IMG/VR virus record: IMGVR_UViG_3300019776_000461
Location: 1 to 64,000 of that record
Length of the DNA: 64,000 nucleotides
Direction: 5' to 3' (one strand)
Origin: a virus
How positions within the stretch are numbered: position 1 is the stretch's first letter; the number at the start of each line of letters is the position of its first letter. Positions 22,601-62,960 of the stretch are shown here, piece after piece. Position numbers and translations under genes: made by a program. The notes below the pieces were generated by a model that ran no database searches, was not told the origin of the DNA, and saw only the letters and a list, made by a program, of their open reading frames with translations.

Positions 22601-25600
22601 CAGTTGGTTTCCATACGTTCGCAAGAAAATATGAGAGCAAATACGTACCAGAATCATCAGAATTTGATTGGGACGGAACAAAACAAAAAGCACCAGCGGT
22701 TGATTACTTTGACTTAACTAAGAAATTTACTACGGTGGGTTTCCATACGTTTGCAAGAAAATTAGAAACAAAATATATACCAGAATCATCTGAGTTTGAT
22801 TGGGATGGTAAGAAGCAAAAAGCTCCTGCGGTTAATTACTTTGACTTGAATAAAAGAAACACAACAATAGGGTTTCACACATTCGCACAACAGTATGATA
22901 CAAAGTATATACCAGAATCTTCAATATTCGATTGGGATGGAAATAGAGGTAAAGCACCTGCTGTAAATTATTTTGATTTATCAAATATTGCAACATCAAA
23001 GGGTTTTCATATATTAGCACAACAACAAGAACCAACATCATATCAAACAACTGGTACTCGATTGAAAGATGGTGCATCTCGTTTTGATTGGGATGGTACA
23101 CGAGATAAAGCACCCGAAGTAAATTATTTTGACGCTAATAAAATTGTAACTTCTAAAGGTTTCCATAAGTTTGCTGCCCCACTTGAACCAACAAAATATC
23201 AAAACGATGGTAAGTCATTGAAAGATGATGCTACTATTTTTGATTGGGATGGTTTACGTGATAAAGCAAATGAAATTGATTTTTTTGATTCAACTAAAAG
23301 ATTTACTAAAAAAGGTTTTCATAGGTTAGCACAACAGTTAGAACCAACCCAATACAATCACGAGGCTTCCGACTATACCTTTAAGGGAACTAAACCAGAA
23401 ACTGGTATTAACTATTTTGACTCTAATACAAGAAATGCATCTGGTTTCACACAAAAGGCAGAACCATTACAGACTGAATATAAGCACGAGTCTTCAAATT
23501 TTGGATTTACAGGTAAATTACCAAATCCGATTGATTTCTTTGATAACAAAGATTCAGATGGTTTTGTGTTAAATACAGAACCACTTCAAAGTAAATTTAA
23601 GGAAGACACTAGTAGGTTTACATTTGTAGGAAAAAGAAGTAATGCACCTGCAATTGATTATATAGAAAATAAAAATGCTCCAGGATTTAAGTCATTTCCT
23701 GCATTACTTGAATCTAACTATGATTTAGATTCTACACAATTTGGTTGGAGAGGTGGACGTATAAATGCACCAGAAGTAGATTTCTTAGATAATGCTGCTT
23801 CGAGTGGTTTTACAACATTCGCACAGACATATCAAAGTTTTTATACTGAAGATTTTGGTAAATATAATTGGAAAGGAGCACGTTCAGAAGCACCAAATGT
23901 TAGTTGGTTTGGTATTACGCCAAAAAGAAAAATGCAACTACCAGATTTGGATTCTGCTACTCGTAGTGTTATGACTGACCAAGGGTTTAAAACTTTCTTT
24001 GAAAATAAAGAAAATACAAACTTAGCGTCAAGTTATTCAACACTATCAACTGAAAATGGACAAAATAAATCTGCGATTAATAATATTCCTATGACCAATT
24101 TCTTTGGTTATACTCCTTCTACAAGAAATGGCTTTATGATAAAAATGTCATCAACTAGTGATACTATGTACCCAATAGTTTCACCTATGATGAAATATGA
24201 TTTACAGATTCAACAAAGAACTCCTATTCAAATATCAAGAGGTGAACTACAAGGTGGACTTGTTAAAGATAGAGAATTGTATGCACCTAACGCTTTTGGT
24301 AAAAAAATAGTAGGTTCAACTACATCTGGTAAATTGGCTTCATTGCAAAACCAAGTACCAGATTCTAAAGTTAAAACTGATGCTTCTTACTATGGAAGAA
24401 CATACGAAGAAAATGTAAGAAATTTTACTGATAAACAAGGTTATGTAAGTAAATGGGCATTAAAACGTAACTCACCGTCACCGTTGGATTTACAATACTC
24501 TAAGTTTAATTTAAGAGCGGATGCTTATAATCCAGACTTCTTAGGTTCAGCAGACCAACCATTCGTGTTGAGAGATATTGGACAGAGATGGGGATTTGGT
24601 GCAAACTTTGATGAAGGACTCGTTCGTGGTGGTGCTGTTACAATGGCAGACCGTATTCTCAATGACGTAATACGTGTTGGTAAATTCTTGGTAACGGGTA
24701 AAGGTTTACTGTTCTTAGCAAAACAAGTTGGTTTACAATTAATGAATCCGAATGTAGATGAAAGACCAGCGAACGGTATTATCGATTCATTAGCTTCAGC
24801 AACTTCATTTGGAATGTCACCAACACAAATTTTCAATCCTGCTGCTTTAATTGCAAATACAGGTGGTGCACCAATTGGTTTAAGATTACCAAGACATAGT
24901 TTGTTGGGTGCTTTAGATTCATCGATGTTGAACAGATACGGTGATACTGCTATAAAAAGAGAATTTTTAGCTGATGGTACGCCTGCTGGTTCAAATTTCA
25001 AAGGATTAGAAGTACCAGAAAGTGATGGTGATCAAACAGATTACAGTAGATTAATCGGATTGATGAAAGAATTATTACCTAATTCATTCAAACCAAATGT
25101 TTCTGGTTTAACATTTGATCATGAACATTCAAAAATATACAGAGTTTCAAGTGGATTTGGTGGACCAGGTGCTCCATTGGGAATCGGTGGTACAAAAATA
25201 AGAAGAGCGAGACATCCGTACCTTACTTATTATACAACTAATGCGTTATTAACCGAACAACCTACACCACCACCATCAACATCAACAACGTCAGGTGGAG
25301 GTGCAGGTGCTGCAGCAGCAGCCGCAGCAGGAACAGCCGCAGCAGCAGCAGGTGTGGCATCCGTTGCAGGACTTGGGGCAAGTGGTAATCCAGCATACCA
25401 AACAACTGCTTTAAGAAATCAATTTTATAGTTTGTCAGATAAAGAAGGTAATTCTTCTCCAGGTGGTTCTTATTCCGCTGAATTGTTGAGAGAGTATACT
25501 CAAAATGATAGAAAGATATTTGGTATGCTCCGAGGACTTGCAAACATGTTACCGAATGGTCCAAGTGAAACTGTAAGTGCAGCAGGTGGAACACCAACAA

Positions 25601-40898: not shown

Positions 40899-41006
40899 TT
40901 TTGTTAAAACCCAATTTTTTTAATCAAAACCATATACTTATTTGTGTATGGTTTTGTTTTTTACAATAAAAATGACGTTTTCAATAAAAAAATGATGGAG
41001 ATAAAA

Positions 41007-42860
41007 ATGGATATTAGTAATCGAATTCTTTCTGAAATAACTGTGTATATGAAATACGCTCGTTATTTACCAGAATTGAATAGAAGAGAAACTTGGAATG
41101 AGTTAGTAACAAGAAACAAAGAAATGCACCAACGTAAGTACCCACAGTTAGTAGACGAAATTGAAAACGTCTATAAGTTCGTTTACGATAAAAAGGTACT
41201 TCCATCAATGCGTTCACTTCAGTTTGGTGGTAAACCAATTGAAATTTCACCTAATCGTATTTACAATTGTGCTTATTTGCCTATTGATGATTGGCGTGCA
41301 TTCGGTGAAGTAATGTTTCTTTTACTCGGTGGAACTGGCGTAGGTTACTCAGTTCAAAAGCACCACGTAGAACAACTTCCACCTATCCATAAACCAAAAT
41401 CCAAAGAACGTCGTTATCTTATTGGAGATTCAATTGAAGGTTGGGCAGATGCAGTTAAAGCACTTGTTAAGTCTTATTTCACAGGTGGTTCATCGATTCA
41501 CTTTGATTATTCAGATATTCGTCAGAAAGGTTCTCGTTTAATTACAAGTGGTGGTAAAGCTCCTGGTCCAGAACCGCTTCGTATTTGTATTGAGAAAATT
41601 CGTGCTATTCTTGACTTGAAAGGCGATGGTGAACAACTTTCACCGATTGAAGTACATGATATTGTTTGTCATGTTGCAGACGCAGTTCTTGCAGGTGGTA
41701 TTCGTCGTGCTGCTCTCATTTCTCTTTTCTCTGCTGATGATGACGATATGATTTCATGTAAGTTTGGAAATTGGTGGGAATTGAATCCGCAACGTGGTAG
41801 AGCAAATAATTCAGCAGTTCTTCTTCGTAGTAAAGTATCTGAAGAATTTTTCAAATCACTTTGGAAGAAAATAGAATTATCTAATGCAGGTGAACCTGGT
41901 ATTTATCTTTCAAACGATAAAGATTGGGGAACAAACCCATGTTGTGAAATTGCACTTCGTCCATTTCAATTTTGTAACTTATGTGAAGTAAATGTATCAG
42001 ATGTTGTTGACCAAGAAGATTTAGAAGCAAGAGTTCGTGCTGCTACATTCATTGGTACACTTCAAGCTGGTTATACAGACTTCCATTATCTTCGCCCTAT
42101 TTGGCAAAGAACTACCGAGAAAGACGCATTACTTGGAGTTGGTATGACAGGTATTGGTTCTGGTAAAGTAATGAAAATGGATTTAAAAGCAGCAACTAAA
42201 GTATCAAGAGAAGAAAATGAAAGAGTTGCTTCCATACTTGGTATTAACAAATCTGCTCGTACAACTACAATTAAACCAGCAGGTACATCATCTTTAACTC
42301 TTGGGTGTTCATCTGGTATTCATGCATGGCACAATGATTTTTATTTACGTAGAGTTCGTGTTGGAAAGAATGAATCAATTTATTCTTATCTTGCAATCAA
42401 TCACCCAGAGTTGGTTGAAGATGAATACTTCCGTCCACACGATACTGCGGTAATTGGTGTTCCACAAAAAGCCCCCGAACACTCAATACTTCGTAGTGAA
42501 TCACCATTACAATTATTAGAAAGAGTAAAATGGTTTAACCAAAATTGGATTAAGCCAGGTCATCGCACTGGTATGAACACTCATAATATTTCTGCAACAG
42601 TTTCTATTCGTGAACATGAATGGGATGCGGTAGGTAATTGGATGTGGGAAAACAAAGAACACTTCAACGGTTTATCAGTATTACCATATGATGGTGGAAC
42701 ATATATTCAAGCTCCTTTTGAAGATATTACAAAAGAAGAGTACGAAAGATTATTAGAAACTTTACATGATGTTGATTTATCAAAGATTGTAGAAATGGAT
42801 GATAATACTGATTTGTCTGGCGAACTTGCTTGTGCAGGTGGTGCGTGTGAAATTAAATAG
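41007..42860 (+). CDS. nrdJ: Class II (adenosylcobalamin-dependent) ribonucleotide reductase
   Basis: YNCAY, GGIRRAA, GEPG, TNPCCEI, TTIKPAGT, C-terminal CAGGAC; no NrdB gene adjacent; ATG 41007 has a GGAG RBS. Confidence 0.85.
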   Translation: MDISNRILSEITVYMKYARYLPELNRRETWNELVTRNKEMHQRKYPQLVDEIENVYKFVYDKKVLPSMRSLQFGGKPIEISPNRIYNCAYLPIDDWRAFGEVMFLLLGGTGVGYSVQKHHVEQLPPIHKPKSKERRYLIGDSIEGWADAVKALVKSYFTGGSSIHFDYSDIRQKGSRLITSGGKAPGPEPLRICIEKIRAILDLKGDGEQLSPIEVHDIVCHVADAVLAGGIRRAALISLFSADDDDMISCKFGNWWELNPQRGRANNSAVLLRSKVSEEFFKSLWKKIELSNAGEPGIYLSNDKDWGTNPCCEIALRPFQFCNLCEVNVSDVVDQEDLEARVRAATFIGTLQAGYTDFHYLRPIWQRTTEKDALLGVGMTGIGSGKVMKMDLKAATKVSREENERVASILGINKSARTTTIKPAGTSSLTLGCSSGIHAWHNDFYLRRVRVGKNESIYSYLAINHPELVEDEYFRPHDTAVIGVPQKAPEHSILRSESPLQLLERVKWFNQNWIKPGHRTGMNTHNISATVSIREHEWDAVGNWMWENKEHFNGLSVLPYDGGTYIQAPFEDITKEEYERLLETLHDVDLSKIVEMDDNTDLSGELACAGGACEIK

Positions 42861-43461: not shown

Positions 43462-43878
43462 ATGTTAACCAATTCAATTCTTAAACGAGAGAATGATTTG
43501 TTTAATGAACTCGTGAACAGTTTATCTCGTCCAGTTAGTTTACTACACACAGGAAAAGGATTAAAATCATCCGTTGATTTTAATAATTGGACACACGCTA
43601 TTGCCAATGAAAACTCATTGGATATTTATGCAGAAGTTCCTGGCTTCTCAAAGGAAGACATTAGTATTACTGTAAAAGAAAAGCTGCTTCGCATCGAAGG
43701 TAAAAGAAAAGGAGTAAATCAATTTGTTACAGAGAAAACTCTAAAATTGAATTATGAACTTTCTAAACCATACGATGTAAAAGGTATTACCGCATCAGTT
43801 GAAAACGGTATTCTTCATGTTTCTGTTCCAAATATAAAACCGGCAGAGCCCGAAGAAGTAACTATTAAAATTAAATAA
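43462..43878 (+). CDS. Small heat-shock protein (Hsp20)
   Basis: EVPGFSKEDISI, ITASVENGILHVSVP, I.IK tail. Confidence 0.9.
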   Translation: MLTNSILKRENDLFNELVNSLSRPVSLLHTGKGLKSSVDFNNWTHAIANENSLDIYAEVPGFSKEDISITVKEKLLRIEGKRKGVNQFVTEKTLKLNYELSKPYDVKGITASVENGILHVSVPNIKPAEPEEVTIKIK

Positions 43879-47316: not shown

Positions 47317-47324
47317 TATATTTG
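47317..47324 (+). promoter_or_regulatory. Bacteroidota-type -7 promoter element (TATATTTG)
   Basis: Upstream of the thioredoxin / modification operon. Confidence 0.6.
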
Positions 47325-47345: not shown

Positions 47346-47364
47346 CCGTGACAATTTGTCACGG
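47346..47364. promoter_or_regulatory. Perfect palindrome, candidate operator
   Basis: CCGTGACAA-T-TTGTCACGG between the promoter and the first start codon. Confidence 0.55.
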
Positions 47365-47397
47365 TTTCACTACCATCTATTTTCTTAAAGGACGGAC

Positions 47398-47655
47398 ATG
47401 ATTACCGTTAAACATTACACAGCTTCTTGGTGTATGCCATGTAAACAACTTAAACCCATTATGAGTGAAATATTACTTAAACGGCCAAACATAAATTACA
47501 AACTTATTGATGTGGATAATGATCCAGATGAAGCATCGATGTATGGTGTTCGTGGAGTTCCTACTGTGATATTTATGAAAGATGGTGTTGAAGTAAATAG
47601 AATTACTGGTTTGGTTTCAAGAAAAAATTACGAAATGGCAATTGATAATTTATAA
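47398..47655 (+). CDS. Thioredoxin
   Basis: ASWCMPCK, YGVRGVPT. Confidence 0.92.
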   Translation: MITVKHYTASWCMPCKQLKPIMSEILLKRPNINYKLIDVDNDPDEASMYGVRGVPTVIFMKDGVEVNRITGLVSRKNYEMAIDNL

Positions 47656-47664
47656 TGGTGAAGT

Positions 47665-48363
47665 ATGACAGTTATAGAAGCGGTTTCTCCCGGTGACGCT
47701 TGGGTAAAAGTTTCTAAGCATTTGTTAGAGAAAGGGGAAAAAGTCGGTGAACTAATTGAAGAATTAAATGTAATGATGGAAATTACTCAGTTTGAAAGTG
47801 ATGATTGGTTTGATTCACACTTCAGAGAAGTAATGGGTGATGATAGAATTGATTTTGCTTCTTCTGTTACTTTCGTAGAACCTAAACCAAAAAAACCAAT
47901 TAACGATTTCTTTCAAGTAGAAGAAGGATTGGAATACCAATTCATTAAAGATCATTGGCATCAGTCCTATTGGGGAAGAATGATTAGTTGGCAAGGTACA
48001 TTTAATCAAGTAGAAAACGTTATTAAAATTTTGAAACAAGGTAAAGCAGTTAAACGTTGTGAGTTAATTATATTTGACCCATCACGTGATTCACGCAATC
48101 CATATTCTCAACCTTGTATGTTGATGATTGACTTGAAGCCACGTAATGGTAAGTTGTATTTAACTTCTGTTCTACGTTCTAATCGTGTTTCTAAAAGTGG
48201 TTATGCTGATTATTCTGCTTTAGTTAATATGGGTAAGTTCTTAGCTAAAGAAAGTGATTTAGAGTTGGGAAAGGTTAGTGTATTAGCTTGTTCCTGCCAC
48301 ATCGGTAAGATGAACAATGAACTTAAAAAAACAAAAGAATTGTTAAACATACTCAATAAATAA
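47665..48363 (+). CDS. Thymidylate synthase / dCMP hydroxymethylase-fold protein (divergent)
   Basis: SYWGR, NQV..VI..LK, catalytic PC, LRSN, Asp at the specificity position, conserved His near the C-terminus. Confidence 0.8.
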   Translation: MTVIEAVSPGDAWVKVSKHLLEKGEKVGELIEELNVMMEITQFESDDWFDSHFREVMGDDRIDFASSVTFVEPKPKKPINDFFQVEEGLEYQFIKDHWHQSYWGRMISWQGTFNQVENVIKILKQGKAVKRCELIIFDPSRDSRNPYSQPCMLMIDLKPRNGKLYLTSVLRSNRVSKSGYADYSALVNMGKFLAKESDLELGKVSVLACSCHIGKMNNELKKTKELLNILNK

Positions 48364-48364
48364 T

Positions 48365-49870
48365 ATGTGCGGTATAATAGCAACCGTCGGTTATACTAAA
48401 ACTGACGTTGATAATATGTTGGAAACCATCGCTCACCGTGGTAAAGATAACCGTGGTATAAAAGAATTTTCTTGGGGCGATAGAAAAGTTATACTCGGAC
48501 ACAATCGCCTTGCTATTAACGATACTTCTGCTGCAGGAAATCAACCGATGGAATGGGAAGGTATTCACTTAGTAGTTAACGGTGAAATATGGAATTATCC
48601 CGAACTAAGAAAAGAATACGAAGAAAGAGGATATGAGTTCAAATCAAATTCAGATTCAGAACTTATACTGTTTGTGTACAAAGAACAAGAATTGAAAAGA
48701 CTTAACGGTATGTTTTCTTTTGTTATTTGGGATAACGGAAAGCTAATTCTTTCTCGTGATTGGGTTGGTAAGTTACCGCTCTATATTTTTAACAATAACA
48801 CTTACATTATTGCAAGTGAAATAAAATCTATTGTTGAACAATTACCCAATGCTGAAATTAAATTTGTACCGAAAAATTCTTTGATTGAAATAGATGTAAG
48901 TACAGATAAAATAACAGTTCATAAAGATTACTATTTTAACTTTTCAAATGAAACAACTTCACCTGAAACACATGAAGAATGCAGTATAACCACGTACAAT
49001 CTACTGGAGAACGCGGTAAGTAAAAGATTGTTATCTGATGTACCTATTGCAACTTCGTTGAGTGGTGGGATTGATTCCGCTGTTATAACGTATTTATTAT
49101 CTACTAAAATACCGAACTTAAAAGCATATACAATTGCTTTTGATGAAGATTCGCCTGACTTGAAGTACGCAAGAATAGTTGCAAAACATTTGGGTATTCA
49201 ATTAGTTGAAGTTTTAGTTCCAAGAAATGTAGAACTATTAAAACAAAGATTTTTGGAATCGATAAGAGTTATTGAATATCCATCTACCGTTCAAATGCAA
49301 GTTGGTATTCTACAATCGTTTATAGCAGAACAGATGGCAAAGGATGGAATAAAAGTTGCTTTTAGTGGTGAAGGTTCTGATGAAGCATACGGTTCTTATG
49401 GAATGATAAGAATGTTCAGTAAGAAACCAGACTGGTCGGATATTAGAAAGAAATTATTTGAAAAGCAATACTATGGTAATTTATTACGCGGTAATACTAT
49501 TTTCATGTATTATGGAACAATAGAATTACGTTGTCCGTTTTTCGATATTGATTTTCTAAATTACACTACTAACTTAACGAACGAATTTCTATCTGATAAA
49601 TCTCAATGGAAACTTCCACTTGCAGATGCATTCAGACCGTACTTGCCTAAAGAAGTTATTGAACAAGAGAAACGTGCTTTTCAAAAAGGTACAAACTTCA
49701 AAGGATATATTGAAGATATAATTCTAAATGATAAAGAAATAAACTTTCGTAATAGAAAAAAGATGCTTCATGTAATTGGTGATAACTTTGAAAAGATTCA
49801 TGGATTCTCACATAAGAAGATGAAGGGCGAACTTATTGGTAATAATGGTGGAATATTCAAATGGATTTAA
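48365..49870 (+). CDS. Asparagine synthetase B-like glutamine-dependent amidoligase
   Basis: MCGI (Ntn Cys), HRG, HNRLAI, NGEIWN, SDSE, LSGGIDS (PP-loop), SGEGSDE, R.PF. Confidence 0.9.
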   Translation: MCGIIATVGYTKTDVDNMLETIAHRGKDNRGIKEFSWGDRKVILGHNRLAINDTSAAGNQPMEWEGIHLVVNGEIWNYPELRKEYEERGYEFKSNSDSELILFVYKEQELKRLNGMFSFVIWDNGKLILSRDWVGKLPLYIFNNNTYIIASEIKSIVEQLPNAEIKFVPKNSLIEIDVSTDKITVHKDYYFNFSNETTSPETHEECSITTYNLLENAVSKRLLSDVPIATSLSGGIDSAVITYLLSTKIPNLKAYTIAFDEDSPDLKYARIVAKHLGIQLVEVLVPRNVELLKQRFLESIRVIEYPSTVQMQVGILQSFIAEQMAKDGIKVAFSGEGSDEAYGSYGMIRMFSKKPDWSDIRKKLFEKQYYGNLLRGNTIFMYYGTIELRCPFFDIDFLNYTTNLTNEFLSDKSQWKLPLADAFRPYLPKEVIEQEKRAFQKGTNFKGYIEDIILNDKEINFRNRKKMLHVIGDNFEKIHGFSHKKMKGELIGNNGGIFKWI

Positions 49871-50700
49871 TACAAACACCCATTGAAGAATATGAACTCA
49901 AAGGAAAAAAAGTTTGGGTTAAACGTGATGATTTAGTAGGTGATGGAATAAATTATCCAAGGTGGGCAAAGATAGAAGGAATTAAACAAATTCTAAGAAG
50001 CCCTGCCATTGATAAAAACAAACCATTAACGCACCTTTCAGTATATGGTAGTTGGACAGGTTGGGTTTTATCTAAACTCTGTAAAGAAGAAGGTATAGAA
50101 TTTATTTCTTCTTATCCAGATACAAAGAAATTCCCAGTGAGTTTAATTGAAAGAGTAATGATAAATGGTGGAAAATTAAATCCACTAAAACCAAATATAA
50201 TGGCGATACTAAATAATCGTGTAAAGAAACAAGCAATGGAAAACGGGTGGCAAATGTTACCGTATGCGTTCAATCATCCAATGTATATTGCATACATGGG
50301 TAGTAGAATGAAACAAGTATTGGAGGATAATGATTTTAACCACTTAGTTGTTTCGATGGGAAGCGGTGTAACGTGTTCTGGACTTATAAATTCATTCTTA
50401 CATTATACAGATTGGCGAGATGTTGTTAGTAACAGACGGCAAGTTCATGGCATTACAATGTCATCGATAAAATCAACGAGAAAAATATTAGAACAAAATG
50501 GAGCAGGTGGTAATAATAATATTCACATTTATAAATCGCCATTTGCTTTTGACGATATGATGTTGGATTATTCAGTACCGTTTGATTGTAATGAGTTTTG
50601 GGATAAAAAAATGTGGTTCTGGTTAGAAGAAAACATTGAGAAATTAGACGGAAAAGTATTATTTTGGAATATTGGTGGTTCATATTTACAATCGATTTAA
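49861..50700 (+). CDS. PLP-dependent fold-type II enzyme (ACC deaminase / D-cysteine desulfhydrase-like)
   Basis: TPIE..., VWVKRDDL, VVSMGSGVT.SGL, LFWNIGG. Confidence 0.75.
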   Translation: MDLIQTPIEEYELKGKKVWVKRDDLVGDGINYPRWAKIEGIKQILRSPAIDKNKPLTHLSVYGSWTGWVLSKLCKEEGIEFISSYPDTKKFPVSLIERVMINGGKLNPLKPNIMAILNNRVKKQAMENGWQMLPYAFNHPMYIAYMGSRMKQVLEDNDFNHLVVSMGSGVTCSGLINSFLHYTDWRDVVSNRRQVHGITMSSIKSTRKILEQNGAGGNNNIHIYKSPFAFDDMMLDYSVPFDCNEFWDKKMWFWLEENIEKLDGKVLFWNIGGSYLQSI

Positions 50701-50716
50701 TATAAATAAAGGAGTT

Positions 50717-51229
50717 ATGAAAATGGCACAGACGTGGCATAGAAGATGGGATGATAGTTATGCTGAGGAAGCATTCAAGAACAGATTAAATTTACCTATT
50801 AAGTATGTAAAGTTAAGTAAAGACGCAGTTAAACCAGAATACTCACAAGACGGTGATGCTGGTATGGACTTAACAGCGACTTCATTTAGAGTTACAGATA
50901 CTTTCATGGAATTTGGAACTGGTATTGCGGTACAGATTCCAGAGAATCATGTTGGACTTTTATTTCCAAGAAGTTCAATTACAAAATCTTCACCAGGCGT
51001 TTCTCTAAAAAATTCAGTTGGTGTTATAGATTCAAATTATCGTGGTGAAATTCTTGTGAGATTTGAATTACCTTACTCAGGAGAGGTGGGTGAAAATATT
51101 CCAGTTGTTGGTGATAGAGTTGCACAATTGGTTATTATTCCATACCCAAGAGTGAAATTCGTAGAAGTAGAGAAACTACCCGATACAAACCGTGGTCAAG
51201 GCGGATTTGGTTCAACAGATAAACAGTAA
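50717..51229 (+). CDS. dut: Trimeric dUTPase
   Basis: DAGMDL, PRSS, GVIDSNYRGE, GDRVAQL, RGQGGFGST; ATG 50717 has an AGGAG RBS. Confidence 0.93.
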   Translation: MKMAQTWHRRWDDSYAEEAFKNRLNLPIKYVKLSKDAVKPEYSQDGDAGMDLTATSFRVTDTFMEFGTGIAVQIPENHVGLLFPRSSITKSSPGVSLKNSVGVIDSNYRGEILVRFELPYSGEVGENIPVVGDRVAQLVIIPYPRVKFVEVEKLPDTNRGQGGFGSTDKQ

Positions 51230-51234
51230 CTTAT

Positions 51235-51242
51235 ATATTTAT
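51235..51242 (+). promoter_or_regulatory. Putative late promoter (ATATTTAT)
   Basis: Precedes a leader-bearing gene inside the replication region. Confidence 0.65.
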
Positions 51243-51276
51243 AGTAAACAAATTCGTTTACTTATAGAGAAGCACA

Positions 51277-51906
51277 ATGTCAAAATTAACTAATATATTA
51301 AAAGAAAGTGGTTTATCGAGATTGGTTTACCACATGGAAATGCACGATTGCGGTACAATTACAGCCTTCCGTTCTAAAGAAGGCTGTGGTTTACCTGAAG
51401 ATTTACCGTACGCTCTACAAGATAACAAAAAAAGAAATGCTCAATTAAAAGCAAAACTTGAAATGATGGGGTACGGAACAACCGCAGTTAAAGGTGCTTA
51501 TATTGAAAACTACGGAACACCTGAAGCAATTGAAGTACGTGAAGATGTTTTCTTTGTTGTGGATTTACAAGACAAAGGAAACCTTGAAGCAGATTTAAGA
51601 AGATTAGGTGAAGAGTATATGCAAGATTCTATTTTGTTTATACCAAGAGGTGGTAGAGGTTCTGTTCTCATCGGTACAAACCATTGTTCAGATTATCCAG
51701 GATATGGCAGAACAATGCAATTCAATGATAGACAAATGGGCAAAGGTGGTCAGTTCATGACAAAAGTAAATGGTAGACCTTTTATATTTGAATCTAATTT
51801 ACTTGAACAAGTTGGAAACCATAACTATTATAGTGTTGCAAACAACATGGGTAAGTGGGCAATGAAAACTATTGCAAATAAAGATTGGAAAGATATTGAA
51901 ATTTAA
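51277..51906 (+). CDS. Hypothetical protein with MSKLTNILKE leader
   Basis: ITAFRS...N..RN..L...L...GY....G.Y.E...QDSIL pattern; late promoter upstream. Confidence 0.6.
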   Translation: MSKLTNILKESGLSRLVYHMEMHDCGTITAFRSKEGCGLPEDLPYALQDNKKRNAQLKAKLEMMGYGTTAVKGAYIENYGTPEAIEVREDVFFVVDLQDKGNLEADLRRLGEEYMQDSILFIPRGGRGSVLIGTNHCSDYPGYGRTMQFNDRQMGKGGQFMTKVNGRPFIFESNLLEQVGNHNYYSVANNMGKWAMKTIANKDWKDIEI

Positions 51907-51928
51907 TTTTAATCGTAAAGGTATTATT

Positions 51929-52213
51929 ATGAGTCGTTCATATAGAAAAACTTCCATAATTGGAAATGCTGGTTCTTCTGAAAAAATGGATAAAATTATA
52001 GCTCATCGTAAGAGTAGAAAATATATTAAAGACCACATTACTGCTACTCATGGTGATTTGGAATTGTTAGAAGAAATTCTAATGCCAAAAGAAGATGAAA
52101 TATCTGATAATTGGAATACATCGAAAGATGGAAAAACTTATTGGAATACAAATGAAAATGAAAATGATTCAGATTGGTTAAAGCGATTTAAGAAAAAAAT
52201 GATGAGGAAATAA
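51929..52213 (+). CDS. Small basic hypothetical protein
   Basis: ATG 51929 (MSRSYRK); W...KDGK..W. Confidence 0.6.
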   Translation: MSRSYRKTSIIGNAGSSEKMDKIIAHRKSRKYIKDHITATHGDLELLEEILMPKEDEISDNWNTSKDGKTYWNTNENENDSDWLKRFKKKMMRK

Positions 52214-52218
52214 ATGTT

Positions 52219-52518
52219 ATGGACGTTTTATTAGTAGAACCAAAAACAAATAAGTTTACCGCTTATTTATACGATGGCACAACAGCAGCAGCGAATGAAG
52301 CATGCTCAAAGTGGCCATGCATTATGACTGCAAGTAACAGTTATAAGGATAAGTGGGTTTTGAAGTTTGAAGCATCGAAAGAAGAGTGCTTACCTGGCCA
52401 ATATATTGTTAACGAAAGTAAGGGGTATTCCATTTATACTCAAGCGGAATTCTTAGAAAAGTATGATGTAGTTTACGATAACCGAAACAAAATCGGTAAT
52501 TTTTTATCCGAAGATTAA
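52219..52518 (+). CDS. Hypothetical protein
   Basis: ORF in operon; G.YIV...F..KY. Confidence 0.55.
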   Translation: MDVLLVEPKTNKFTAYLYDGTTAAANEACSKWPCIMTASNSYKDKWVLKFEASKEECLPGQYIVNESKGYSIYTQAEFLEKYDVVYDNRNKIGNFLSED

Positions 52519-52530
52519 TTTAGGAATGTT

Positions 52531-53691
52531 ATGTATTTAGATTACTTTGACAAGTTCAAAGGAATGAGTCCTTACCTTGCGATTGATGAAATAGAATGGA
52601 AGTATATTCAAGAAACATTTGAGAAGGAAGATGTTTTAGAATCGATGGCAACACTTTTAATGACTTATGATTTACCATACGCTGACATTTCTATTGAAGA
52701 TACAACTTCTGAGTTTCAAAAGTTGAAGGCGATTAAGTGGAAAGAAATGTTAAAAGAAGGTAAGTGGAAAGCCAGACATAGTTACAATTTAGATTTTGAA
52801 TGGAACGGAAAACCATTATTCTTTTCAAGAAGTAATGTAGGTAACTCTGCATCAAATTACTTTCAACAGGTAAACCGTTGGAAAGTTGATGCTGCATACT
52901 CACCTGGTCCAGCAAGAAGTTGGACTTCTCTTCGTTCTATGATTTCTATATCAAAAGCGTTCTATACATTGAAATTTAAAAAGATTGATAAAGCAGCAGT
53001 TCGTTCTGCACTAAGTCTTAGAAAATATGTTTGCTCTCAATTCAAACCAAATGTTGCAAAGGCATTATACGATATGTATGGTGCTAAAACAATATTAGAC
53101 TTCTCGGCAGGATGGGGTGATAGATTATGTGGATTCTATGCATCGGATAAAGCAGAAACATATATTGGAATAGACCCTGCTCCAAATAATCATTCTGTTT
53201 ATCATGAACAAGCAGATTTTTATTCTAAACAATTAGGTTGGTTTGATACGAAAAAATCAGTACATTTATACGAAGCACCCGCGGAAGATTGGGATAATTC
53301 AGAGTGGATAGGTAAAGTTGATTTAATATTTACATCGCCTCCTTACTTTGATACCGAACGATATTCAAACGATGATAAACAAAGTTGGGTTAGGTACAAG
53401 AATATAGATTCTTGGAACAAAGACTTTTTACATAAGGCATTGGATAATGTATGGGAAACTCTTAAATCTGGTGGTACAATGATTATAAACATTGCAGACA
53501 TTTATAATAGACCAGCAAAATCATATTTGAAAATATGTGAACCTATGGTAGAATACATGAAAGAAAAAGTGGATTGTATATACGAAGGTGCGATGGGTAT
53601 GGAAATGGCAGTACGGCCGTCCGATACTGGAATAGATTATGATGATAAAGCAAAATTTGCAGAACCAATGTGGGTATTCAAAAAGGCATAA
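52531..53691 (+). CDS. Amino (N4-C/N6-A) DNA methyltransferase-like protein, copy 1
   Basis: Motif I DFSAGWGDR, GIDP, motif IV FTSPPYF. Confidence 0.8.
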   Translation: MYLDYFDKFKGMSPYLAIDEIEWKYIQETFEKEDVLESMATLLMTYDLPYADISIEDTTSEFQKLKAIKWKEMLKEGKWKARHSYNLDFEWNGKPLFFSRSNVGNSASNYFQQVNRWKVDAAYSPGPARSWTSLRSMISISKAFYTLKFKKIDKAAVRSALSLRKYVCSQFKPNVAKALYDMYGAKTILDFSAGWGDRLCGFYASDKAETYIGIDPAPNNHSVYHEQADFYSKQLGWFDTKKSVHLYEAPAEDWDNSEWIGKVDLIFTSPPYFDTERYSNDDKQSWVRYKNIDSWNKDFLHKALDNVWETLKSGGTMIINIADIYNRPAKSYLKICEPMVEYMKEKVDCIYEGAMGMEMAVRPSDTGIDYDDKAKFAEPMWVFKKA

Positions 53692-53692
53692 A

Positions 53693-56209
53693 ATGTATCA
53701 AAATATATTTGTTAAAACAAACACAAAAGAAGCATGGGTATGGGATGATACTAAAGGACTTTTGTATTTTAATTATACTCCATACGCTTACCGTAGAGAT
53801 TCAAACGGTAAGTTTGTTTCGTTATATGGAGACAAATTATCTAAGGTAACTGAATTCACAAAGAATGATCCAGACTTATTTGAATCTGATGTTGCTGAAA
53901 CTACACGCATTCTTGTTGATATGTACCATGAATCCGATATTCCATCGAAAGCGATTGTTACAATGGCGTTCGATATTGAGGTTGAAATGATTACAGGTAC
54001 GCCAGATCCAACCGAAGGTAACAATGAAATAACTTCTATCGCTTATCATGATTCAGCAACTAACCACTACACTATGTTGGTGTTGGATAAACAGAAGCGA
54101 TTGAAAAATAGAACTACGGATAATAAAACAATAGTTTCTTGTCCAGATGAAAAAACACTTCTACTTAAATTCTTAGCAGGTATAGAAGAAATTCAACCGC
54201 ATATTATGACTGGTTGGAATTGTGATGCATTCGATATTCCATATTTGTATAATAGAATAAAGAGAGTTCTTGGTAAGAAGCAAGCACATCGTATGTCACC
54301 TATAAATGAAATGTTTTTTTCTCCTTATAGAAATCGATGGAGTATTGCTGGTATTTCTGTATTGGATTACATGACTGTTTATAAAAAGTTCTCATATAAA
54401 GAGTTACCATCGTACGCACTTAATGCAGTTTGTATGACCGAGTTAGGTCGTGGTAAGGTTGAGTATGAAGGTAACTTAGATGATTTGATGGAAAACGATA
54501 TTGAAACGTTTATCGAATACAATATAACTGACGTTGAACTTGTTCTTGAATTAGACAAGAAGTTGCAGTATATAGACTTAGTGCGTGGTATTTGCCACGT
54601 TGGTCATGTTCCATACGAGGATTTTGTTTACTCTTCAAAGTATCTTGAGGGTGCTTTGTTATCGTACCTTAAAAATGTTGGAGGTATAGTTGCACCAAAT
54701 AAACCAGCTGATAGACAAGAAAAAATGGCAGAGTTACGAGAGAGCGGTGAACAAGGATTCATTGGTGCTTTCGTTAAAGACCCAATTCCTGGCCGTTACG
54801 AGTGGATGTATGACTTAGATTTAACTTCTCTGTATCCATCTATTATTATGACTTTGAATATTTCTCCTGAAACAAAGATTGCTAAAATAGATAACTGGTC
54901 TGCTGAGGATTTTATTCGTGGTAAGAATGATGAATATTTCGTTGCAGGTGAAATGGTTTCAAAAGAAAAGTTAAAAGCGTTTTTGGATAAATACAAATAC
55001 ACCGTTGCTTCCAATGGTGTGATGTATAGTTCCGATAAGGTTGGATTGATTCCTGCTATTCTAAACGATTGGTTTGATAAACGTGTTCAGTATAAAGATG
55101 AAATGAAAAAATGGGGTAAAGAAGGCGATACAGAGAAGTATGAGTTCTATAAGAAAAGACAACTTGTTCAAAAGATTCTTCTTAATTCATTGTATGGTGT
55201 ATTAGGTTTACCTGCATTTCGTTTCTATGATATTGATAATGCAGAAGCGGTTACACTTTCTGGTCAAACTGTAATTAAGAAAACAGAAGCAGCGATTAAC
55301 ATGAAGTATAATAAAGAGTTGGGTTCAGACAATGTTGATTACGTACAATATGTTGATACCGATTCTGTGTTTGTTTCTTGTTTACCGTTGGTAAAGAATA
55401 GATTTCCTGGTATTGATACTAACAATATTGAGTTGATGACTCCAAAGATTTACGAGATTGCAACGGAAGTACAAGATTATGTAAATGAGTTCTACAATAT
55501 ATTTGCAAAGAAAGTATTCAACACAGACAAACATCGCTTAGAAATTAAACAAGAGATGATTGGACGTACAGGTTTTTGGCAAAAGAAAAAAAGATATGCA
55601 TTATGGATTATTTCTGACAACGGTGTTCAGATGGATAAGTTGGAAGTTAAAGGGTTGGACATTGTTCGCTCTTCATTTCCAAAATCATTTCAGAAGTTTA
55701 TGAAGGCGGTACTAATTGATATTCTGAAAGGTAGAGAAAAAGTAGAATTAGATGAAGATATTCTAAAATTCAAACGAGACTTAGGTACAGTTCTATATGC
55801 TGAATTGGCTAAGAACTCTTCTATAAAAGACATTAAAAAATATCAAGAGCGTTTAACAGTTGATGTGTTAGGTAAGTTTGGTAAAGGAACGCCTGCTCAT
55901 ATTAAAGCAGCGATGAATTACAATAACCTATTAAAGTTATTTAATTGTCCACCGAAGTTTCCAGCAATTAAAAACGGTGATAAGGTTAAAGTTGTTTACT
56001 TGAAAAACAATCGGTACGGTTTAGAAGAGCTAGCATTCAGAGGAGATTCAGATCCAGAAGAAATTATAGAATTTATCAAGGAGAACTTTGATGCTGACGA
56101 GTTGTTTATGTCAGAATTGGATTCAAAGTTACGTGGGTTCTATGAATCAATGAAGTGGGAGTTCCCAACGGAAAGTAAAAAGGTTGCACAGAAGTTTTTT
56201 TCTTTCTAA
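53693..56209 (+). CDS. Family B DNA polymerase with 3'-5' exonuclease
   Basis: FDIEV, GWN..FD, YN..D, DLTSLYPSI, KILLNSLYG, YVDTDS, KKRY; start ATG 53693. Confidence 0.95.
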   Translation: MYQNIFVKTNTKEAWVWDDTKGLLYFNYTPYAYRRDSNGKFVSLYGDKLSKVTEFTKNDPDLFESDVAETTRILVDMYHESDIPSKAIVTMAFDIEVEMITGTPDPTEGNNEITSIAYHDSATNHYTMLVLDKQKRLKNRTTDNKTIVSCPDEKTLLLKFLAGIEEIQPHIMTGWNCDAFDIPYLYNRIKRVLGKKQAHRMSPINEMFFSPYRNRWSIAGISVLDYMTVYKKFSYKELPSYALNAVCMTELGRGKVEYEGNLDDLMENDIETFIEYNITDVELVLELDKKLQYIDLVRGICHVGHVPYEDFVYSSKYLEGALLSYLKNVGGIVAPNKPADRQEKMAELRESGEQGFIGAFVKDPIPGRYEWMYDLDLTSLYPSIIMTLNISPETKIAKIDNWSAEDFIRGKNDEYFVAGEMVSKEKLKAFLDKYKYTVASNGVMYSSDKVGLIPAILNDWFDKRVQYKDEMKKWGKEGDTEKYEFYKKRQLVQKILLNSLYGVLGLPAFRFYDIDNAEAVTLSGQTVIKKTEAAINMKYNKELGSDNVDYVQYVDTDSVFVSCLPLVKNRFPGIDTNNIELMTPKIYEIATEVQDYVNEFYNIFAKKVFNTDKHRLEIKQEMIGRTGFWQKKKRYALWIISDNGVQMDKLEVKGLDIVRSSFPKSFQKFMKAVLIDILKGREKVELDEDILKFKRDLGTVLYAELAKNSSIKDIKKYQERLTVDVLGKFGKGTPAHIKAAMNYNNLLKLFNCPPKFPAIKNGDKVKVVYLKNNRYGLEELAFRGDSDPEEIIEFIKENFDADELFMSELDSKLRGFYESMKWEFPTESKKVAQKFFSF

Positions 56210-60967: not shown

Positions 60968-61423
60968 ATGGCTGCTAAGAATATATTCGACCACTTAAAA
61001 GGTGTTACACTTCGTAAAACCAAGTGGGAATCCTTATCTGAAGAAGATAAGAAGAGTTGGAACAATTATATGATTTCACGTTTCTTCTCTATGGAGATGG
61101 AACTAACGGACGTAATAAATGAGTTTCAGAAATACTCAAATGGAATATTATCATCGGAGGATTATTATAAACTATTATCGGACGCCTTACCAAAACATTC
61201 GTTCTTTCTAAAGTATGTTAAAGCTAAGAACAGAGTTGACATAGATGCAGAACTAATTACTTTATTTTGTAATCATTTCCAACTTGGAAAGAACGAAGTG
61301 TTTGAGTATATTCGTTTTCTTAAAAGAGAAAACCCAATTGAACTAACTAACATTTTGAAAAAGTACGGCACAAAAGAAGATGTAATAAAAGATTTTGAAA
61401 AGAAACTGAAGACAATTAAATGA
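60968..61423 (+). CDS. Clamp loader small subunit (gp62-like)
   Basis: YMISRFFSM...FLKYVK; position after the gp44-like gene. Confidence 0.55.
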   Translation: MAAKNIFDHLKGVTLRKTKWESLSEEDKKSWNNYMISRFFSMEMELTDVINEFQKYSNGILSSEDYYKLLSDALPKHSFFLKYVKAKNRVDIDAELITLFCNHFQLGKNEVFEYIRFLKRENPIELTNILKKYGTKEDVIKDFEKKLKTIK

Positions 61424-61803
61424 GGAATAAAATGGCTATTAAAGAAATAGATTTAGGGCGGAAACAAAATGGGGCTGTATCTGAAATTGAAGAGAAGTTT
61501 CCTAATATGACCAAGGAGTTCAAACGTATTCAACAAGAACAGTATGAACTCTTCTGTGCAAAGCAAAAGAACTATGGCCCAGATAATATTTCCATGGGAA
61601 GTAATCTCGAACGAGAAGACGATCGTAAACTTTCTTTGCAGGGTTTATTCTTTCGTATTAACGATAAGATAAACAGATACAAACAAATGATTATGTTTGG
61701 TTCACAAGACGCAGTTGGTGAATCTCTAAATGATACATTCAAAGATATTTCTGTTTATGGAATTATCGCACAACTTGTTCAATCTGGTAAATGGGGGAAA
61801 TAA
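61420..61803 (+). CDS. DUF1599 / nucleotide-modification-associated domain 1-like protein
   Basis: LF..KQ.NYG..N, RI.DK..R, ES..DT..D...Y.II. Confidence 0.7.
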   Translation: MRNKMAIKEIDLGRKQNGAVSEIEEKFPNMTKEFKRIQQEQYELFCAKQKNYGPDNISMGSNLEREDDRKLSLQGLFFRINDKINRYKQMIMFGSQDAVGESLNDTFKDISVYGIIAQLVQSGKWGK

Positions 61804-62960
61804 TGAGTATATATATTTGGACTTCGGAATATGTAAGTGAAGGTCATCCTGATAAAATAGCTGACCAAATTTCAGATGCAGTTCTTGATTGGTACTTACA
61901 AAGAGACCCAGATGCAAAGGTTGCGTGTGAGGTTATGGTAAAGGATAGTGATATTTATGTTTCTGGTGAAATAAAATCAACGGTTGATAAAGATAAAAGA
62001 ACTTTAGAATTATCACTAACTCGATTAATTAGAGGACTTATAAAAGATATTGGATACACAAAAGAAGAATCCCCTTTCTTTAATTCAGACTATTGCCGTA
62101 TTCATTTCAATATATCAACTCAATCATCAGAGATTAATCAAGCAGTTGATAAAGGAGATGTTGTTACAGCAGGAGACCAAGGTATTATGTTTGGTTATGC
62201 AACTCGTGAAACTCCAACGTATATGCCGGTAGCAATTTACTTAGCTAAAAAACTAATTGAAGTTGCAACGGATATTAGAAAGAAAGGTAGTAAACTTGGA
62301 CATGTACAAAAACTTCGTCCTGATATGAAGAGTCAGGTGTCTGTTGCGTATAGTGGTAATGAAGCAGTTGGTATTCATTCTGTTGTATTTTCAACTTGTC
62401 ATTCTGAGTTGATTTCACTTGAAGAACTTAGAAAGTATTTCCACTCTGATATTTTACCAAAGGTATTAGAAAGTATTCCAGAAGAACTTGCTAAACTGTT
62501 TACAGATAAAACTGTTTACCATATAAATCCTGCTGGTGAATGGAACATAGGTGGTCCAGTTTCTGATTGTGGATTAACTGGTAGAAAGATTGTGGTTGAC
62601 CAATATGGTGCTGATTGTGAAATTGGTGGCGGTGCTTTCTCAGGCAAAGACCCAAGTAAAGTTGATAGAAGTGCAGCATATATGGCTCGTCATATTGCCT
62701 TAAAAACACTTCATGAAAATGAAGAAGCAAATAAAATTAAAGTTCAATTAGCATATGTAATCGGTGAAGAGTTTCCTGTTTCATATCGTATATTTGACCC
62801 AACAACTGGAAAAGAATATGGACTTGGTAAATTTAGTTTCAATGATTTAACCCCAAATAAAATCATTGAAAGATTAAAATTAAAAACTCCTATTTATTTA
62901 CAGACTGCTAAGTACGGTCATTTTGGAAATAAAGATTTAGAATGGGAGAAAATTGGATGA
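61803..62960 (+). CDS. metK: S-adenosylmethionine synthetase
   Basis: TSE.VSEGHPDK, AGDQGIMFGYA, DCGLTGRKI, GGGAFSGKD..KVDRS, YGHFG. Confidence 0.95.
   Translation: MSIYIWTSEYVSEGHPDKIADQISDAVLDWYLQRDPDAKVACEVMVKDSDIYVSGEIKSTVDKDKRTLELSLTRLIRGLIKDIGYTKEESPFFNSDYCRIHFNISTQSSEINQAVDKGDVVTAGDQGIMFGYATRETPTYMPVAIYLAKKLIEVATDIRKKGSKLGHVQKLRPDMKSQVSVAYSGNEAVGIHSVVFSTCHSELISLEELRKYFHSDILPKVLESIPEELAKLFTDKTVYHINPAGEWNIGGPVSDCGLTGRKIVVDQYGADCEIGGGAFSGKDPSKVDRSAAYMARHIALKTLHENEEANKIKVQLAYVIGEEFPVSYRIFDPTTGKEYGLGKFSFNDLTPNKIIERLKLKTPIYLQTAKYGHFGNKDLEWEKIG

Follow-up and report, generated by a model that had tools for sequence, protein, structure and literature searches.

A stretch of DNA of 64,000 nucleotides from a large uncultured freshwater phage (positions 1 to 64,000 of the IMG/VR virus record IMGVR_UViG_3300019776_000461, hereafter the window) carries a compact gene cassette that, judging from homology and gene order, probably constitutes a virus-specific system for the hypermodification of cytosine in phage DNA by a chemistry not yet described. 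The cassette encodes a divergent thymidylate synthase (TS)-fold enzyme (TS-like), an asparagine synthetase-type amidotransferase (AsnB-like), a pyridoxal 5'-phosphate (PLP) enzyme of fold type II (PLP-like) and a methyltransferase-like protein with an SPPY motif (MT-like), and is found on at least 77 viral contigs from several lineages. What is new in it is a TS-fold active-site signature outside the characterised classes, together with a new combination of known types of tailoring enzymes, related to CmoY of phage S-B43 and to gp52 of phage M6, respectively. The closest studied relatives of its enzymes are each modifiers of pyrimidines for phage DNA, and two of these relatives work on DNA itself. 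Such a system would likely represent a fourth route to C5-modified cytosine beside those leading to 5-hydroxymethylcytosine (5hmC), 5-hydroxycytosine (5hoC) and 5-carboxymethylcytosine (5cxmC). Literature searches on this gene combination returned no description of it, and the presence of amidotransferase or amidoligase genes near thymidine hypermodification genes in viromes has been mentioned only generally (Lee et al. 2021). DNA hypermodifications determine whether phage genomes are open to attack by restriction enzymes, CRISPR systems and other nucleases, and they have repeatedly given rise to new enzymology and to epigenetic sequencing tools.

Linkage of the cassette genes in viral genomes

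The initial annotation of the window had described five open reading frames, encoding a thioredoxin, the TS-fold protein, the AsnB-type protein, the fold-II PLP protein and a dUTPase. All five were recovered at the same coordinates with agreeing domain calls (Table 1), and the tight coupling reported for the three central genes was found as well, with a 1-nt gap between the TS-like and AsnB-like genes and a 10-nt overlap between the AsnB-like and PLP-like genes. It had also named co-occurrence of this triad in related phages as a check. Such co-occurrence is seen in a set of 77 viral contigs with a TS-like gene, 67 of which are informative in that they hold enough downstream sequence to judge. 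Among these 67, the AsnB type is found in 53, a PP-loop-only type in 12, the PLP-like gene in 64 and all three genes in 63; in a further contig (L135), a divergent PP-loop gene follows the PLP-like gene. Overall, the triad occurs in 63–64 of the 67 contigs, far beyond chance. Furthermore, the TS-like gene and the PP-loop gene either overlap or lie 1 nt apart in 52 of 57 loci. Such near-obligate synteny argues that the three genes form a genuine conserved unit and are not housekeeping genes.

The module is also kept in distant lineages, in which the TS-like proteins are 40–54% identical and the family B DNA polymerase (PolB) is about 30% identical where detected, with the order MT-like, TS-like, PP-loop, PLP and almost no spacing between the genes. 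Because this order is retained, the MT-like gene, not listed in the initial annotation, is a fourth conserved member of the cassette; it lies within the locus in 60 of the 67 contigs and directly upstream of the TS-like gene in the distant lineages.

The TS-like family itself is small, with only 13 representatives at E <1e-30 among 1.84 billion proteins and a single match in 185,579 species genomes, and is essentially virus-only. That sole species-genome match (L138, contig CAIOZA010000025.1 of a metagenome-assembled genome labelled Ignavibacteria) has consecutive MT-like, TS-like and PP-loop-only genes, lacks a PLP-like gene and is probably a phage contig binned into the assembly, or a prophage. 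The only longer, fused form is a metagenome protein of 676 aa (P0128), in which the TS-like domain is joined to a radical S-adenosylmethionine (SAM) domain with a CPRKCSYC motif; this radical SAM part has no similarity to the isomerase gp53 of phage M6. A separate radical SAM gene stands between the AsnB-like and TS-like genes in another locus (L106:3422-6985), with no PLP-like gene in the 1.6 kb available downstream.

Active site of the thymidylate synthase-like protein

The TS-like protein is only distantly related to established thymidylate synthases. It scores 26.5 bits against the Pfam model PF00303 (cut-off 24.3), with a match restricted to the C-terminal half, 73.2 bits against its best NCBIfam match, the methanogen-type TS model TIGR03283 (cut-off 174.55), and 16 bits against NF002495 (cut-off 327). 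Examination of a family alignment and of profile alignments to Staphylococcus aureus TS, MilA and AfhB allowed us to locate the residues of the active site. The catalytic Cys is kept (Cys151, equivalent to C146 of the E. coli enzyme), within a PC motif that is invariant except in one distant homolog. At the position of E. coli N177, the base selector, the protein has Asp182, the residue that selects cytosine, and this Asp is invariant in the family; its placement is confirmed by the profile alignments to MilA and AfhB and supports the earlier proposal of a cytosine-directed pathway. On the other hand, the position of E. coli D169 is occupied by an Arg (Arg174) in the window protein and by Arg or Ala across the family, and that of E. 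coli L143 by Ser148, mostly Ser or Gly in the family. In the same profile alignments, the motif reads RAND...D in MilA, RSQN...D in AfhB and RSaD...N in classical TS. Two further residues, Lys177 and Tyr180, are invariant in the family; they fall in the segment where classical TS has its folate contacts. Conservation is lost at the Tyr of the HxY motif, which contacts the sugar. Distant homologs such as P0150 and P0151 retain the canonical Asp and Asn, and the residue changes are therefore specific to this clade.

These features can be set against those of the known enzymes. It has been established that the N177D change selects dCMP, that an acidic residue at position 143 accompanies hydroxymethylation, and that D169N is diagnostic of flavin-dependent 5-hydroxy-dCMP synthases (PMC13326640, Lee et al. 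2026). The TS-like protein has the TS fold and the catalytic Cys and lacks the Asn177 and Asp169 that define ThyA. Of the 5-hydroxy-dCMP synthase signature it has N177D and not D169N. As for the dCMP and CMP hydroxymethylases, it shares with MilA (5b6d) and T4 gp42 a TS fold specific for cytosine nucleotides, the Cys and the selector Asp, and MilA is its best sequence match among solved structures (1.2e-08 with the family profile); it differs in that these enzymes keep Asp169 and have an acidic residue at the Leu143 position, both of which are replaced here, by Arg/Ala and Ser/Gly, respectively. With a dCMP selector and Arg or Ala at position 169, the TS-like protein therefore fits none of the characterised classes. 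Moreover, an ordinary thymidylate synthase is encoded elsewhere in the genome of each of four complete relatives (G001–G004), namely a ThyA scoring about 300 bits in G002–G004 and a ThyX in G001, so that the TS-like protein is an extra, specialised enzyme.

The AlphaFold2 model of the TS-like protein (mean pLDDT confidence 91.9) has as nearest structures AfhB (9iqu, Z 20.5), MilA (5b6e, Z 20.2) and 9iqc (Z 20.0), classical TS reaching about 18. This brings in a variant of the first step, to which we assign a small but appreciable probability. In it, the TS-like protein would belong with the flavin-dependent 5-hydroxy-dCMP synthases of the AfhB or RB69 gp48 type, and the 5-hydroxyl group would serve as the handle for later steps. 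Before amidation, this handle would receive either a carboxymethyl or aminocarboxypropyl moiety, which the MT-like protein would take from a SAM derivative, or a serine-derived unit added by the PLP-like enzyme. Indeed, the 5-hydroxy-dCMP synthases (AfhB of HY126, 9iqu/9iqc; RB69 gp48; DLP3 gp80; PMC13326640) resemble the TS-like protein in their short TS fold, their Cys, their Asp177 and the loss of the folate-contacting Asp169, and AfhB, the top structural match and similarly short, superimposes over 196 of 217 residues with a root-mean-square deviation of 2.6, the identity being only 18%. The presence of a SAM synthetase (MetK) and of three SAM-dependent MT-like genes, as well as that of CmoB, which carboxymethylates 5-hydroxyuridine, among the fold matches of the MT-like protein, would also suit this variant. 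Against it, the Asn169 that is diagnostic of the proven 5-hydroxy-dCMP synthases (PMC13326640) is replaced by Arg or Ala, no CmoA homolog was found in the record of the window (G000) or in the relatives G001–G004, and the CmoB match is no better than those of dozens of class-I methyltransferases. The partner genes differ as well, since 5hoC phages combine the synthase with glycosyltransferases, NDP-sugar genes and a deoxynucleoside monophosphate (dNMP) kinase, whereas the cassette has an amidotransferase, a PLP enzyme and an MT-like protein.

Tailoring enzymes and proposed chemistry

The AsnB-like protein is, as initially described, a complete two-domain enzyme, with an N-terminal nucleophile (Ntn) glutaminase domain that begins with MCGI and provides Cys1, followed by a PP-loop synthetase domain with an SLSGGIDS motif. 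It scores 290.6 bits against the asparagine synthase model TIGR01536 (cut-off 267.1) and 248.6 bits against the AsnB equivalog model PRK09431 (cut-off 499). E. coli AsnB (1ct9) is matched at 1.3e-40, with the same two-domain architecture, Cys1, PP-loop and SGEGSDE motif, and with a divergent region over the C-terminal 150 residues. In AsnB, the Thr322/Arg325 pair has a role with beta-aspartyl-AMP; a Gln or Met is aligned at the Arg325 position in the cassette protein, in an HMM alignment that is locally uncertain. Unlike E. coli AsnB, the cassette gene keeps a fixed place beside the TS-like and PLP-like genes, and its slot is taken in 12 contigs by a PP-loop protein of about 300 aa without a glutaminase domain (L040:8696-9622, L053, L045, L057 and eight other loci), which suggests a different nitrogen donor in those phages.

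A precedent for such an enzyme acting on DNA is found in phage S-B43. The C-terminal domain of the AsnB-like protein aligns over the whole of S-B43 CmoY at 4e-09, the 308-aa variant does so at 3e-12, and the identity is about 23%. CmoY is an ATP-dependent ligase that couples glycine to 5-carboxymethylcytosine in DNA, and its Gln-dependent relatives are predicted to give a primary amide (PMC12783734, Yang et al. 2025), so that the amide capping of a DNA-base carboxylate by an asparagine synthetase homolog, which had been proposed for the window, has a biochemical parallel. The cassette and the CmoA/CmoX/CmoY pathway (5-carboxymethylcytosine and its glycine amide; PMC12783734) would share an asparagine synthetase homolog and a carboxylate at C5 of cytosine in DNA. 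They differ in that S-B43 CmoA and the C5-methyltransferase-type CmoX (PF00145) have no match in G000–G004, so that the cassette is not a Cmo pathway; the C5 chemistry would come from the TS-fold enzyme instead, and a PLP enzyme is added.

The PLP-like protein points in the same direction. It matches M6 gp52 over its full length (residues 6-272; blastp 6e-30, 29% identity) and phrog_7093 at 5e-26, and reaches only 0.0047 against PALP, below the cut-off. Its Lys37 aligns with Lys36 of gp52, the predicted Schiff-base residue of that enzyme (PMC8989533), and is invariant in 10 family sequences, as are about 28 further positions. A PLP-dependent decarboxylase, gp52 converts C-alpha-glycinylthymidine in DNA to 5-aminoethyl-dU (PMC8989533, Lee et al. 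2021). It had been suggested that the PLP enzyme of the window makes or trims a small amino-acid-derived unit, and the trimming of a DNA-borne amino acid is thereby proven for a relative.

This homology raises the question of a thymidine hypermodification of the M6/ViI type, with the TS-like protein as the source of 5-hydroxymethyl-dUMP and the other enzymes at work on an amino acid attached to 5-hydroxymethyl-deoxyuridine (5-hmdU) in DNA. The cassette does resemble the M6/ViI pathway (PMC8989533) by its gp52-related PLP enzyme and by the order of events, with a TS homolog acting first and an amino-acid-type adduct being tailored later, and amidotransferase and amidoligase genes have been seen beside such genes in viromes (Lee et al.). 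We nevertheless regard this explanation as highly improbable, given that the Asp at the Asn177 position indicates cytosine and not uracil, that a normal thymidylate synthase is kept, and that a dUTPase is present in the window lineage. Furthermore, the lack of the 5-hmdU DNA kinase and of the amino-acid:DNA transferase, initially noted for the operon alone, extends to the whole record of the window and to the four complete relatives, in which PF18748 and PF18724 have no match; the cassette is thus distinct from the routes that rely on these two enzymes. It also differs from the M6/ViI pathway by the lack of an M6-type radical SAM isomerase, and by the presence of the cytosine selector, an additional asparagine synthetase-type amidotransferase and the SPPY MT-like protein.

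Ordinary auxiliary metabolism would be another explanation: the nucleotide and amino-acid pools of the host would be raised by three unconnected enzymes, namely an archaeal-type short TS, an authentic asparagine synthetase and an enzyme resembling serine/threonine dehydratases. Public annotations indeed read thymidylate synthase, asparagine synthase and threonine dehydratase, the Pfam TS model is passed by a narrow margin with a methanogen-type TS as best NCBIfam match, and the asparagine synthase model TIGR01536 is passed as well. However, the relatives already have a bona fide ThyA or ThyX, the uracil selector Asn has become Asp, the folate-contacting Asp is lost and the score against the methanogen-type model stays far below its cut-off. 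Moreover, a glutaminase-less PP-loop protein replaces AsnB in the same slot, the PLP-like protein belongs to the gp52 family and to no dehydratase family, and the genes of this virus-only family are held in near-obligate synteny. Taken together, these observations make independent metabolic roles very unlikely.

The MT-like protein has a motif I (DFSAGWGDR) and a motif IV (FTSPPYF) that are invariant in 12 sequences. Its AlphaFold2 model (pLDDT 88.8) adopts a class-I methyltransferase fold and matches generic class-I methyltransferases only (Trm11, CmoB and MccD among them), a comparison that does not discriminate between enzymes acting on DNA, RNA, proteins or small molecules; a search of PDB sequences gave no match. 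Two paralogs lie downstream of PolB (Table 1), and they diverge in their N-terminal halves, in a way that would suit distinct target specificities. The phage MetK, encoded in G000, G001 and G002 and not in G003 and G004, possibly supplies SAM to these proteins. A small protein encoded beside it (window 61420-61803) has a weak match to DUF1599 ("nucleotide modification associated domain 1"; 1.8e-04, below the cut-off). The window phage also codes for a protein of the SAM-lyase family in addition to this complete MetK.

We propose the following scheme for the cytosine hypermodification. By homology with its closest relatives, which all act on dCMP or CMP, the Cys of the TS-fold enzyme would activate C5 of a cytosine nucleotide and install a handle there, using a co-substrate other than in the classical folate arrangement. 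This handle may be a hydroxyl, a hydroxymethyl or a carboxylate-bearing carbon unit, and would then be built into an amino-acid-derived side chain. The PP-loop enzyme, again by homology, would adenylate a carboxylate and convert it to an amide, with Gln-derived ammonia in most cassettes and probably free ammonia or another amine in the glutaminase-less variants, and the PLP enzyme would act on an alpha-amino-acid moiety, as the gp52 family decarboxylates a base-attached amino acid in DNA. One or more side-chain carboxylates would thus be amidated by the former and/or removed by the latter once the base is part of DNA, as in the CmoY and gp52 reactions. The MT-like protein may add a SAM-derived group to a nitrogen, which could be N4 of cytosine, an amine of the side chain or the newly formed carboxamide. 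The pathway is expected to yield a cytosine with an amide or an amine in its C5 substituent, a base that would protect the genome against host nucleases.

Several points weigh against this proposal. The AsnB-like protein just passes the asparagine synthase model, and plain asparagine synthesis is possible for this protein taken alone. At 29% identity to gp52, the PLP enzyme may catalyse a different type of reaction, and the three MT-like paralogs could be ordinary sequence-specific DNA methyltransferases that are merely nearby. Amidation and decarboxylation exclude each other on one carboxylate, which sets the PP-loop and PLP enzymes at odds within one scheme; ways around this conflict are the presence of two acid groups, alternative end products, or another PLP reaction such as a beta-replacement attaching a serine-derived unit. 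Finally, no phage dNMP kinase of the T4 or thymidylate kinase type (PF21448, PF02223) was found in the four complete relatives, whereas the phages that make 5hmC or 5hoC before replication (T4, RB69 and DLP3) encode one (PMC13326640). This weakens a simple T4-like pre-replicative model, and host kinases or an action of the TS-like protein on the polymer remain as possibilities.

The concrete reaction schemes that we considered all keep a low probability. The initial annotation had the TS-fold enzyme itself attach an amino-acid-derived unit at C5, which is speculation. In a further reading, tentative and in our view rather doubtful, the TS-like family, with its invariant Lys177 and Tyr180, would represent a third mechanistic class of TS-fold enzymes beside the folate type (Asp169) and the flavin type (Asn169). 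It would either join C5 to a non-folate electrophile (such as an amino- or keto-acid-derived iminium) or act directly on DNA, giving a cytosin-5-yl amino acid that the PP-loop enzyme would then amidate, the PLP enzyme decarboxylate and the SPPY enzyme N-methylate. The smaller number of phosphate-binding Arg residues and the missing dNMP kinase would both agree with a direct action on DNA. If true, this third class would mean that widespread freshwater phages carry a whole group of new DNA bases.

The substrate could also lie outside DNA, the cassette acting on RNA (for instance on tRNA cytidines) or on a free cytosine-nucleotide metabolite, in the manner of the MilA-type CMP hydroxymethylases of nucleoside-antibiotic pathways. 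That MilA, a CMP enzyme, is the best PDB sequence match of the TS-like protein, that the family does not retain the HxY Tyr that contacts the sugar, that no dNMP kinase was found and that the MT-like fold is as close to the tRNA m2G methyltransferases (Trm11) as to anything would all be accommodated in this way. Nonetheless, a non-DNA target seems unlikely to us, as the characterised relatives of two partners, gp52 and CmoY, point to DNA-borne substrates, the cassette sits inside the DNA replication module beside PolB in several phage lineages, and the MT-like protein combines its SPPY motif with a score over the cut-off of a DNA methylase Pfam model. Hypermodification of cytosine in the phage DNA therefore stays our favoured reading.

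Genomic neighbourhood and distribution

The window belongs to an 84.7-kb viral record that is about 48% complete with a GC content of about 33%; its close relatives reach up to 177 kb and more distant ones 276–289 kb. Neighbours of the cassette include PolB, which adjoins it in most relatives, a clamp loader and a ribonucleotide reductase. In the window the latter is of class II (B12-type; 40944-42860) and is located upstream of the cassette, as is a small heat-shock protein of the Hsp20 family (43462-43878).

Table 1. Positions in the window of the cassette genes, their neighbours and the upstream signals
Feature	Position	Strand	Remarks
TATATTTG motif	47317..47324	+	Upstream of thioredoxin; possible phage promoter element (putative)
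Perfect 9+9 palindrome CCGTGACAA-T-TTGTCACGG (19 bp)	47346..47364	.	Between 898-aa gene and thioredoxin; candidate terminator or operator
Thioredoxin, 85 aa, CMPC active site	47398..47655	+	PF00085 2.9e-15; neighbour, not core
Divergent TS-fold enzyme, 232 aa	47665..48363	+	Thymidylat_synt 4.4e-06, residues 98-225 only
AsnB-type amidotransferase, 501 aa	48365..49870	+	GATase_7 1.4e-32, Asn_synthase 4.3e-42
Fold-II PLP enzyme, 279 aa	49861..50700	+	Homolog of phage M6 gp52; Lys37 predicted Schiff-base residue
Trimeric dUTPase, likely ATG start 50717	50672..51229	+	PF00692 4.2e-16; phrog_135 1.6e-41
SAM-lyase-family-like protein, 209 aa	51277..51906	+	PF23780 2.5e-10; only in closest relatives
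SPPY amino-methyltransferase-like protein (MT-like), 386 aa	52531..53691	+	PF01555 29.6 bits vs cut-off 26.7
Family B DNA polymerase (PolB)	53639..56209	+	61.7% identity to Mel-JY01 PolB; cassette within replication module
MT-like paralog, 544 aa	56977..58611	+	PF01555 2.7e-06; 30% identity to 386-aa protein
Second MT-like paralog, 397 aa	58505..59698	+	PF01555 5.9e-06; 34% identity to 386-aa protein
Phage S-adenosylmethionine synthetase (MetK)	61791..62960	+	All three MetK Pfam domains, 3e-30 to 7e-45

The genes that flank the triad in the window are not part of the conserved module. The thioredoxin and dUTPase genes do stand on either side of it here, as had been described, and are lineage-specific neighbours: the distance from the thioredoxin gene to the TS-like gene ranges from 0 to 3100 nt among relatives, and a dUTPase beside the cassette (tblastn, E<=1e-5) is found only in the closest relatives, with TS-like proteins 96–99% identical (L002–L005 and L012–L016). 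The upstream signals had been taken for the triad's own promoter and palindrome. Both exist, and both precede the thioredoxin gene. The TATATTTG motif occurs 18 times in the window against 7.6 copies expected by chance, several of them 40–80 nt before genes on the + strand, and is found upstream of the thioredoxin gene in only 6 of 40 related loci. Owing to this position and lack of conservation, it was rejected as the cassette's own promoter. A sigma-70 scan gave matches at chance level only, and the palindrome was not called by a terminator scan.

Judged by PolB, Microcystis phage Mel-JY01 comes closest among cultured phages, but it has no TS-like or AsnB match. The cassette is carried by no cultured phage in a collection of 50,697 phage records, in which the 3.8-kb region has no megablast match, every tblastn match of the TS-like and AsnB-like proteins is below 33% identity, and matches of the PLP-like protein are confined to M6-like phages. 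On the other hand, 13 runs from seven further studies, of metagenomes labelled lake, river, freshwater, aquatic and "marine", contain the region in near-identical form, with at least 60% of the sampled words matched.

Short metatranscriptome contigs from four runs of four studies match the window at 93–100% identity (47360-48722 and 50755-53999). They cover parts of the thioredoxin, TS-like, AsnB-like, PLP-like and dUTPase genes, and some bridge the thioredoxin/TS-like and TS-like/AsnB-like junctions; they are compatible with expression, carried-over DNA being possible, and were not used as evidence. Among the variations seen in related loci, a full-length gene for a GroEL-type chaperonin is inserted between the PLP-like and MT-like genes in L053:10462-12084 and L057:10462-12081. 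Elsewhere in the window, two very large open reading frames lie back to back on the + strand, at 15139-19638 (1499 aa) and 19681-27480 (2599 aa).

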